From the NCBI RefSeq assembly GCF_055900595.2, contig NZ_CM148325.1: 64,000 bases of DNA; one strand, given 5' to 3'. How positions within the stretch are numbered: the stretch's first letter is position 1; every line of letters starts with the position of its first letter. The translations under genes were made by a program, and so were the position numbers. This document shows positions 13,825 to 16,764 of the stretch, piece by piece. Under the pieces are notes generated by a model, which made no database searches, was not told the origin of the DNA, and was given only the letters and a program-made list of their open reading frames with translations.

Positions 13825-13900
13825 CCTTTAATGCCGGATGCGACGCCTGCGGCGTCTTATCCGGCGTACGAATCCACACCAGGCATATAATCATTCGCTA
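13825..13900. repeat. REP element downstream of rdgC
   Basis: tgccggatgcgacgcctgcggcgtcttatccggcgtacg palindromic unit. Confidence 0.6.
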
Positions 13901-14036
13901 CGGCGGGCAATAATTTTTAGCGCAGCAATATTATGCGTTTTACGCCGTAACTGATCCAACCGTCTCATCCCTATTCGCCTGTCAGCGGCACGCAGAATAT
14001 TCACTAACCCCCATTTATCGCTGGTAAATTGTTTCG

Positions 14037-14345
14037 TTAACAGCTCCGCTTTTGGGTATCAATATATTCACGCAATAAATCAGAAATTGAACAAATATCC
14101 GTCAGATAAGGATACCAGCAAGTTTCACCATGAAAATTACGCACTCCACCATTGCCTGCCATAAAGTCTTTTGGGTAATCCCAGATCACGTCTTTATCCA
14201 ACGTGATCCAATAACGCGGTAAATCGGTGCTTCCACCATTTTGGCTGCGCATGGGATAACGGGTACAGTGAATTTGCAGGTTGATCGTTGGCGTCAGTAA
14301 GTCATAAATCTCCCTCTGTAACTTGCTCCAGGGGCGTTGTGTCAT
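14037..14345 (-). CDS. hypothetical 102-aa protein, translationally coupled (ATGA overlap) to the upstream 762-aa ORF; no signal peptide
   Basis: ORF track; start codon overlaps the stop of the large ORF; sits in the position of the K-12 ykiA locus but identity to ykiA is unverified. Confidence 0.6.
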
Positions 14346-16630
14346 TGTTTTTCCTCAAGCCGGTTACGCGCTTCACTGCGAATTTGCCGCGTTGCCCCGG
14401 TTTTCACTAAATCACGTAACTGCGAAAGATCGGGCTGATCGACAAATAAGATTAATGATGGATCCTCTTTTAACCACGCCGTTTTCACATCGGCAGCCAA
14501 CTGTGGATTATTAATAGCCAGCGCCCGATCCTGTGACTCAGTCAATGTCGTTAACAAAGAGGCTGGGGTATGTACATTGCGCAACGCCGTCTGCCGCAAA
14601 TGATCATTGTGACTTTTCAGCAATCCGCACCACCATTCATCATCTGATTTATCTTTTATCGTATCCAGCTCCGCAAAAATATCGCTTTCCTCATGATTCC
14701 AGCGGTGTAATCCTCTTTCACTTTGTCTACGGGTGCTATTTTTCATACTGACAACAGACAACGCCCAGTCAGAGTTAAAACGATACTGTTGATCGAGTTT
14801 GTTGATAATTCCGGAGGGTAAATCTTTATTATCAAATAACTGGTTTCGCATCCGATAGCGGTATTCAGCAGGTAAATAAACCAGTAAATCGATAGCATTA
14901 TTAAGCATCTCTTCGTCAATAATACCATTATCAATCAGCGCCAGCTGTACTTCGTAGGCTTGCTCTTGATCTTCTTGCCGTTTACTCATCATTAATTTTA
15001 AGGTGTGTTGCCATAATTGTTTCTTATACTCCAGAGGTAACAATTTATCGCGTGCCAGCTCATACCAGATGCTGGGAATGTCATGCTGATTCAGTAGATA
15101 ACTAATCACTTCCTTCGAGGTCAGATAACGCATGCCGTCACGTAAATTGTGCACATCTTCTTTTGCCAAAGTCAGTTGACGCGACTCCGGCAAAGCGACC
15201 AATAACGCCTTCACGATATTTTTATTTTCTTTATTATCCAGATACATTTGTTCTGCGATACGTTCAACATCCTCTGTCCTCAGGGTCGCTGACAGTTGGG
15301 TGATTTTTAGTTCAGTAAGCGTCCGGGCTAATGCTTGACGAACTTTCAGCGATTTATCTTTACTCAACAACACCGCTTGTTGTGCGGTTAAATCGGTTCC
15401 GGTAATTCTTTCGCGTAACTCCAGATCTTCGCTATTTATCAATTCATCAACCACTGCAGTTGGAACCAGCCAGGCGTAATCGTAATGGCTGATTAATGTC
15501 TTGCGCACACTGAGAAAAGGGCTTTGACTTAACGATACAACAATATCAGGAGAAAGATTATCCTGTCTGGCCTGCTCCAGCTGTACGCTCTCGACGGGTA
15601 CAGACATTAATTTTTTATTCACTTCGGCGGATATATTGCTGTTTTTAACCAGTCCTCTGGCAACAGCTTCATCTTTAATTAATTCATCGGTAAGCAAATG
15701 CATGTGTTGAGCAGGCCAGGACTGCGCCATTGATTCACGCGTCTGGTCATCGGGGTGCTGTAACAGTTGCAGCATAACGGCGGTTGACAAACTTTCTATA
15801 TGAGTCAGAAAACGTGCCACCAGTGGATCTTCATGCTTTATTTTATCCGCAAGGAAATTATCGAGTTTCCCCGTTTCAATCCATTTTAATTTCTCATTAA
15901 TTTCAGGAGCAGCTTTATCTCGAAAAAGAGGTAAACCCTGAACGATATTGTCTACGACGCTATCATAGTCAGGATACGCATTGGAAATATTATCGGTTTC
16001 GATTTCACTATGATCATAAAGATTAGGCGTCACCAGTGAATAGGCTTTTTGAATATTCTCGTCCCAGTTATATTCTTCACCGCTTTCATCTTCATTGATA
16101 TAAAACTCAGCTTTGATGACCTCAAATTGCGTTGCTTTATCGGAAACAATAATGCCTCGCGCGTTAATTCCTTTCATCACTTCAAAGTTGTGATCATTAT
16201 AATCAGCATAAACTAAACCTTTTGCTGTCATCTGCCCTTTGACATACGCGAAATCATGATTAATAAAGTTATCGACAATAACATTACCTAATACAATCAG
16301 ATGACCATTACCTGACAGATAATCATCATAATCGCCGGAAATCGTTAAATTACCGTTCACCACCAGTTTATGCTGATTGCTGAAGTTAGTGGGTAATGAT
16401 AGGTCACCATTATGATAATACCAGCGGATATTATCTTTTAGCATATAAGCAGCTTCCATACTATCGTTGGTTGCCGCTTTAACCACGTTGCGCTCATCTG
16501 CCGTCATAAGATGAAAGTCAGAGGTGATAAGGTCCTCGCTACTGATCCACTCTGTGGCACATGCATTGCCAGTCATAAAAAATACGACCATACAGATGAC
16601 CAATATATTAATTCTATTCATAATCTTCAC
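14342..16630 (-). CDS. hypothetical secreted 762-aa repeat protein (Sec signal peptide; N-terminal Asn/Gly/Asp-rich beta-type region; C-terminal HEAT/LRV-like helical repeats)
   Basis: ORF track; N-terminus MKIMNRINILVICMVVFFMTGNACA has n/h/c regions of a Sec signal peptide; repeated motifs such as HLRQTALRNVHTPASLLTTLTES and DRALAINNPQLAADVKTAWLKEDPSL; locally AT-rich DNA. Confidence 0.75.
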   Translation of the reverse strand: MKIMNRINILVICMVVFFMTGNACATEWISSEDLITSDFHLMTADERNVVKAATNDSMEAAYMLKDNIRWYYHNGDLSLPTNFSNQHKLVVNGNLTISGDYDDYLSGNGHLIVLGNVIVDNFINHDFAYVKGQMTAKGLVYADYNDHNFEVMKGINARGIIVSDKATQFEVIKAEFYINEDESGEEYNWDENIQKAYSLVTPNLYDHSEIETDNISNAYPDYDSVVDNIVQGLPLFRDKAAPEINEKLKWIETGKLDNFLADKIKHEDPLVARFLTHIESLSTAVMLQLLQHPDDQTRESMAQSWPAQHMHLLTDELIKDEAVARGLVKNSNISAEVNKKLMSVPVESVQLEQARQDNLSPDIVVSLSQSPFLSVRKTLISHYDYAWLVPTAVVDELINSEDLELRERITGTDLTAQQAVLLSKDKSLKVRQALARTLTELKITQLSATLRTEDVERIAEQMYLDNKENKNIVKALLVALPESRQLTLAKEDVHNLRDGMRYLTSKEVISYLLNQHDIPSIWYELARDKLLPLEYKKQLWQHTLKLMMSKRQEDQEQAYEVQLALIDNGIIDEEMLNNAIDLLVYLPAEYRYRMRNQLFDNKDLPSGIINKLDQQYRFNSDWALSVVSMKNSTRRQSERGLHRWNHEESDIFAELDTIKDKSDDEWWCGLLKSHNDHLRQTALRNVHTPASLLTTLTESQDRALAINNPQLAADVKTAWLKEDPSLILFVDQPDLSQLRDLVKTGATRQIRSEARNRLEEKQ

Positions 16631-16725
16631 TGATATTTATATCAACCTTGATGAATTATGAATATATCGGAAATCGAAAAAATCGCAGCAAAGGAAATAT
16701 TATTATGGGTTAAAGAGAGGATATT

Positions 16726-16760
16726 TCAGAAAAATGCCCTCCCGTTCATGGGGAAGGCGA
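16726..16760 (-). terminator. possible ppnP terminator hairpin followed by a T-run
   Basis: Minus-strand CCUUCCCC..GGGAGGG stem followed by AUUUUUCUG, about 10 bp downstream of the ppnP stop. Confidence 0.4.
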
Positions 16761-16764
16761 GGAA

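Follow-up and report, generated by a model that had tools for sequence, protein, structure and literature searches.

The window analysed here, a 64,000-nucleotide stretch of contig NZ_CM148325.1 (assembly GCF_055900595.2), carries a long reading frame in housekeeping surroundings (aroM-ppnP ... rdgC), which raises the question of what kind of protein this frame encodes and what that protein does in the cell. The ORF list and its translation place a 762-codon ORF on the minus strand (14342..16630), and the plus-strand frame over the same interval is riddled with stop codons. The initial annotation had described a 762-aa ORF at these positions; the ORF itself is real, its length is corrected to 759 aa and its implied strand to the minus strand. 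Specifically, position 16630 begins a GTG in the window and an ATT in the O157:H7 allele, while the ATG at 16621 is kept in the O157:H7 allele and is the RefSeq start. GTG 16630 is therefore an unlikely start codon and translation probably begins at ATG 16621, giving a product of 759 aa with the N-terminus MNRINILVICMVVFFMTGNACA followed by TEW. The four peptides quoted earlier are all found in this product, at aa 86, 425, 674 and 698 in the 759-aa numbering.

The ORF list, the translation, the conserved ATG and annotated intact orthologs together define a full-length YkiA coding sequence of 759 aa plus stop at 14342..16621 on the minus strand. Full-length homologs, a dN/dS of 0.18 against the O157 allele, which indicates purifying selection, and an AlphaFold2 (AF2) model with a pLDDT of 91 confirm that the ORF is genuine, far beyond chance. 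The gene is already catalogued and in that sense not new: RefSeq names its product "DUF2773 domain-containing protein", and the ortholog in O157:H7 Sakai is ECs_0442, for which a literature search (ECs0442) found no publication. The family as a whole is uncharacterised.

Comparison with K-12 MG1655 by blastn, together with the K-12 annotation, reveals that 1939 bp are missing there, a stretch that begins at the start codon and reaches codon ~646 (14684..16622 in the window). The K-12 pseudogene ykiA (b0392) comprises 113 codons, corresponding to codons ~647-759 of the 759-aa gene, and shares its locus, promoter and 3′ end; the deletion takes out the start codon, the signal peptide, the beta-helix and most of the solenoid. 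That the 759-aa coding sequence is the intact allele of an E. coli accessory gene, of which ykiA is a deletion remnant, is well supported. Equally well supported is that the gene is a full-length paralog of YdbD (K-12 b1407, 768 aa), which is collinear with it over the full length (BLASTP, 29% identity over 745 aa, E 1e-87) and has the same signal peptide, beta-helix, solenoid and DUF2773 tail. The two differ in that the ydbD locus lies elsewhere, upstream of ynbABCD, and in that the beta-helix motifs of YdbD are degenerate, with YDDY and YND lost. An exported protein of this type had been called unusual for E. coli, a view that does not hold because K-12 has both a full-length paralog with a signal peptide and the ykiA remnant. 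Overexpression of sigmaE raises ydbD 3.9-fold (PMC2731931); the ties to sigmaE and methylglyoxal in the literature are loose and concern YdbD. Papers naming ydbD contain incidental observations only.

The first 22 residues of the product (MNRINILVICMVVFFMTGNACA; 16556..16621, minus strand) constitute a predicted Sec (signal peptidase I-type) signal peptide, which is the sole hydrophobic segment of the protein and is conserved in the family. It is made up of MNR, INILVICMVVFFM and TGNACA, with cleavage predicted behind A-C-A and ahead of T; its n-region is basic, and a hydrophobic core of 13 residues precedes the A-C-A cleavage site. A motif scan of the 759-aa protein finds neither a lipobox nor a twin-arginine motif, and the segment agrees with the Sec/SPase I rule set (n-region, h-region, small residues at -3 and -1, no lipobox or Tat motif). 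The assignment was made by this rule and by conservation among relatives: an equivalent layout, immediately ahead of a conserved Trp, is present in ~30 of the 41 family members, and in two apparent exceptions an upstream in-frame ATG restores the signal peptide. The Sec signal peptide claimed from the first reading thus gains support from the relatives as well. Some relatives that possess the beta-helix and the repeats have no signal peptide, which argues that the core activity of this architecture is not specific to the periplasm.

An AlphaFold2 model, which the initial annotation had proposed as a check, shows a beta-helix followed by an alpha-solenoid, with a pLDDT of 91 and a pTM of 0.80 at full length and a pLDDT of 95 for the N-domain alone. 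Behind the signal peptide, short helices (aa 23-64; 16430..16555, minus strand) form an N-terminal cap ahead of a right-handed beta-helix of about six rungs (aa ~65-177; 16091..16429, minus strand), in agreement with the beta-solenoid-like N-domain suggested before. The conserved motifs of the beta-helix are HxGDL, GxYDDY, VLG, YND..FEV and DK. A linker (aa 178-240; 15902..16090, minus strand) with a conserved G-x-P-x-F-R motif and the alignment-invariant R234 connects the beta-helix to the solenoid. The beta-helix N-domain is without a Pfam model and occurs in well over 100 sequence clusters, with or without a signal peptide. A sequence search of the PDB with the N-domain profile returned nothing real and no bactofilin, and NCBIfam returned for it a weak MinC-like hint only (E ~0.01-0.03, far under the cutoff).

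The rest of the chain (aa 241-759; 14345..15901, minus strand) forms an alpha-solenoid of ~39 helices with LRV/HEAT-like repeats, as judged from AF2, the 1LRV profile match, Pfam on the relatives, Foldseek and hhalign. In AF2, the helices of aa 258-420 are spaced by ~12 residues, which fits repeats of ~24 residues. The family profile (41 sequences) matches 1LRV over ~110 residues with an E-value of 1e-12 and a "D..VR..A" signature, and Pfam detects LRV_2 in 6 and LRV in 4 of the 41 relatives at E<=0.001, and HEAT_2 in 1 of the 41; for the 759-aa protein alone, Pfam gives no LRV match and HEAT just at E 9.9. Internal repeats, another proposed check, are significant at the profile level: hhalign of repeat blocks gives probabilities of 95.9% (E 6e-9) and 93.4% (E 2.4e-7), and homology links the block aa 601-759 with the repeat block aa 331-425. 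Foldseek groups the solenoid with LRV proteins in the AFDB and, in the PDB, returns PP2A-A, importin-beta, SF3B1 and CAND1 at E-values of 5e-7 to 1e-4 with low TM-scores (0.1-0.3). Taken together, the earlier claim of HEAT/LRV helical repeats is supported by the 1LRV match, by LRV, LRV_2 and HEAT_2 in relatives and by the HEAT/ARM matches of Foldseek. Pfam DUF2773 (PF10971) matches aa 679-759 (14345..14587, minus strand; E 7.5e-39, model 1-81/81). This model is not a standalone domain and represents the terminal repeats of the solenoid; it spans only the solenoid tail because K-12 ykiA is the C-terminal 113-codon remnant.

The nearest structural counterparts differ from this architecture in several ways. 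1LRV (PF01816 / PF25591), the leucine-rich repeat variant protein from Azotobacter vinelandii, probably has the same repeat type. It measures 244 aa, is cytoplasmic and contains an Fe-S domain, which the 759-aa protein lacks; the solenoid described here is ~5 times longer, and in it LRV-like repeats are mixed with longer HEAT-like helices. As HEAT/ARM scaffolds, the PP2A A subunit, importins and SF3B1 have the same paired-helix alpha-solenoid, but they are eukaryotic cytoplasmic or nuclear proteins, and at TM 0.1-0.3 the likeness is one of generic fold. The helices of tapirin (6N2B/4WA0), Pet (4OM9) and Hbp (3AK5) show ~10% sequence identity to the beta-helix of the 759-aa protein, are far longer, and the proteins that carry them are secreted or surface-located and have dedicated domains for secretion. 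The bactofilin core (BacA 2N3D; Thermus 6RIA; PF04519) is likewise a right-handed beta-helix of ~6 windings; it has no match to the 759-aa protein at the sequence level, and the latter is predicted to be exported, with its helix capped at both ends and fused to a solenoid.

On these grounds we infer, with moderate confidence, that the 759-aa product most likely works in the periplasm as a binding or scaffold protein without enzymatic activity and is expressed under envelope-related regulation. Sec export and cleavage behind Ala22 would yield a soluble protein that is kept in the periplasm; the predicted mature protein is acidic, with a mass of ~85 kDa, a pI of ~5 and one Cys. There it would act as a non-enzymatic binder or scaffold, the concave surface of the solenoid gripping a protein partner and the polar strip of the beta-helix (H70/D73, Y98-D99-D100-Y101, Y141-N142-D143, D161-K162) touching a second ligand, which could be an envelope polymer. 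Alternatively, the polar strip may dock the conserved linker Arg234.

The neighbourhood of the gene bears on a different reading, namely that the product is a periplasmic immunity protein which, in an orphan-immunity islet together with SF0329, protects against a periplasm-acting interbacterial effector; we consider this unlikely. Downstream lies an SF0329-family gene (13891..14345, minus strand) whose start overlaps the stop of the 759-aa coding sequence (ATGA). Frame analysis and comparison with O157 and strain H1 show that the loss of 1 bp from a C-run near 14057 has turned it into a pseudogene here; the O157 gene is intact, and NCBIfam NF049912 matches at E 4e-26 after frame repair. The K-12 counterpart, ykiD (b4732), is an SF0329 gene in which an internal deletion has brought N- and C-terminal codons together. 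In other phyla, SF0329 family members lie among small genes that all point one way, in arrays that include Imm10, SUKH-3, WGR/DUF4240 and an integrase and that resemble polyimmunity or acquired-defence islands. In line with immunity, immunity proteins built of HEAT, LRR or ankyrin repeats have been described (PMC3482391), the region is AT-rich, the locus shows presence/absence polymorphism with repeated independent decay, and one cytoplasmic relative adjoins a gene for a Tle1-like T6SS phospholipase.

The pairing itself argues against that reading, because it is confined to the Escherichia ppnP-rdgC locus: a tblastn search for SF0329 in ten homolog loci gave an 18-aa remnant in Escherichia whittamii as its sole match, and homologs of the 759-aa gene in unrelated genomes stand alone, without an SF0329 neighbour. 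Scanning a genome collection with a 9-sequence alignment yielded 4 loci, too few for statistics. In a separate inspection of the neighbourhoods of four relatives, and of four more relatives without a signal peptide, no neighbour recurs. Nine of the ten non-Escherichia homolog loci inspected have no toxin or immunity neighbours, the exception being a Tle1-like gene beside P0088, and, this gene apart, the neighbourhoods examined are free of genes for toxins, Rhs, VgrG or CdiA. Additionally, PADLOC gives no matches, and 759 aa is far above the size of typical immunity proteins. A pair consisting of a large toxin and an SF0329 immunity gene was also considered and rejected: the large protein lacks a toxin domain at its C-terminus, the frameshift lies in the SF0329 gene here while the large gene is intact, and the pairing is not conserved.

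Another departure from the binding or scaffold reading, and an improbable one, is that of an enzyme: the beta-helix would process an envelope polysaccharide as a glycan lyase, hydrolase or epimerase that depends on Ca2+ or a metal, and the solenoid would clamp the substrate or a partner. Periplasmic beta-helices are frequently glycan-active (AlgG, NosD/CASH), which favours this idea, as does the strip of alignment-invariant polar residues on consecutive rungs (H70, D73, Y98, D99, D100, Y141, N142, D143); rather than a binding surface, this acidic and polar strip could form a catalytic or metal site. However, Pfam and NCBIfam give no match to an enzyme family, and the beta-helix has just about six rungs, with adhesins and bactofilin as its best low-rmsd neighbours and with occurrences of the same domain in proteins without signal peptides. 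The wider scans of the 759-aa protein point the same way: Pfam, NCBIfam, PADLOC and PHROGs contain no enzyme signature for it, and a motif scan finds no HExxH, Walker A or GxSxG, as the initial annotation had stated of catalytic motifs. The NCBIfam lipase_V model was rejected at 15.7 bits against a cutoff of 300.

A role outside the cell, as an adhesin or effector that is secreted or exposed on the surface, is very improbable in our judgement. The beta-helix does resemble tapirin adhesins and autotransporter passenger domains, and the intact allele is typical of O157:H7, but an autotransporter barrel, a TPS or T3SS signal, a lipobox and nearby secretion-system genes are all absent, the neighbourhood (aroM-ppnP ... 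rdgC) is a housekeeping one, and homologs occur in environmental Xanthomonadales and Pseudomonadales. The effector option raised earlier is not supported: the gene has no linkage to a secretion system, lies in no pathogenicity island and has relatives in environmental bacteria. Scarcely credible, finally, is a polymer-forming cytoskeletal protein of the bactofilin type, a notion that comes from the database names of the paralog ("DUF2773 domain-containing bactofilin", "polymer-forming cytoskeletal protein"), since at E<=0.1 Pfam PF04519 matches neither the 759-aa protein nor a single one of its 41 relatives, the conserved signal peptide sets the protein apart from the cytoplasmic bactofilins, and in AF2 both helix ends continue into the cap and the linker, making end-to-end polymerisation unlikely.

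The envelope-related part of the favoured binding or scaffold reading comes from the promoter. A promoter and leader of its own (16622..16764, minus strand) separates the start codon from the ppnP terminator (16758-16736), as delineated by alignment with K-12 and O157 and by a pattern scan, and it is near-identical to the K-12 ykiA promoter. In K-12, BglJ-RcsB activates PykiA, as established by lacZ fusions, 5′-RACE and site mutagenesis (PMC3950696). The pattern scan locates a box resembling wwTTCykA (TTTTCTGA) at 16734-16727, and CATAAT hexamers are found at 16707-16702 and 16660-16655; judging by sequence pattern, the box is a candidate regulatory site and CATAAT a putative -10 element. The GC content of this AT-rich region is low (0.37-0.44), which suggests repression of the promoter by H-NS. 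The promoter behind the ppnP terminator would normally be quiet and be turned on by the BglJ-RcsB heterodimer, and the 759-aa protein would thus be part of an envelope-related accessory regulon controlled by H-NS, LeuO and BglJ.

The full-length locus is retained in ~8% of complete E. coli genomes and lost from most, the intact allele being typical of O157:H7; presence/absence polymorphism and repeated independent decay mark the locus. The gene would be dispensable in most E. coli lineages, which have deleted it. Since most E. coli have lost it, and since it is frameshifted in the nearest strain, the function of the 759-aa protein may be marginal. The YdbD/YkiA family counts ~170 clusters; ~40 full-length cluster representatives of 735-819 aa were found, and homologs occur in environmental Xanthomonadales and Pseudomonadales. 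A more far-reaching view, which strikes us as quite unlikely, would make YdbD/YkiA an unrecognised exported class of beta-helix plus LRV-solenoid proteins for bacterial conflict or envelope surveillance, for example toxin-capturing periplasmic decoys or immunity factors, silenced in the H-NS manner, released by LeuO-BglJ-RcsB and repeatedly gained and lost, with SF0329 as a second, cytoplasmic immunity module.

Nothing here overturns the current understanding of these genes. Rather, the orphan entries ykiA and ykiD of K-12 are the remains of a unit of two genes, which O157:H7 and a few other lineages keep intact, and the uncharacterised YdbD family gains a concrete architecture of signal peptide, small beta-helix and ~520-residue solenoid. 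BglJ-RcsB provides a regulatory handle on the family, which eases the search for the localisation and the partners of its members.

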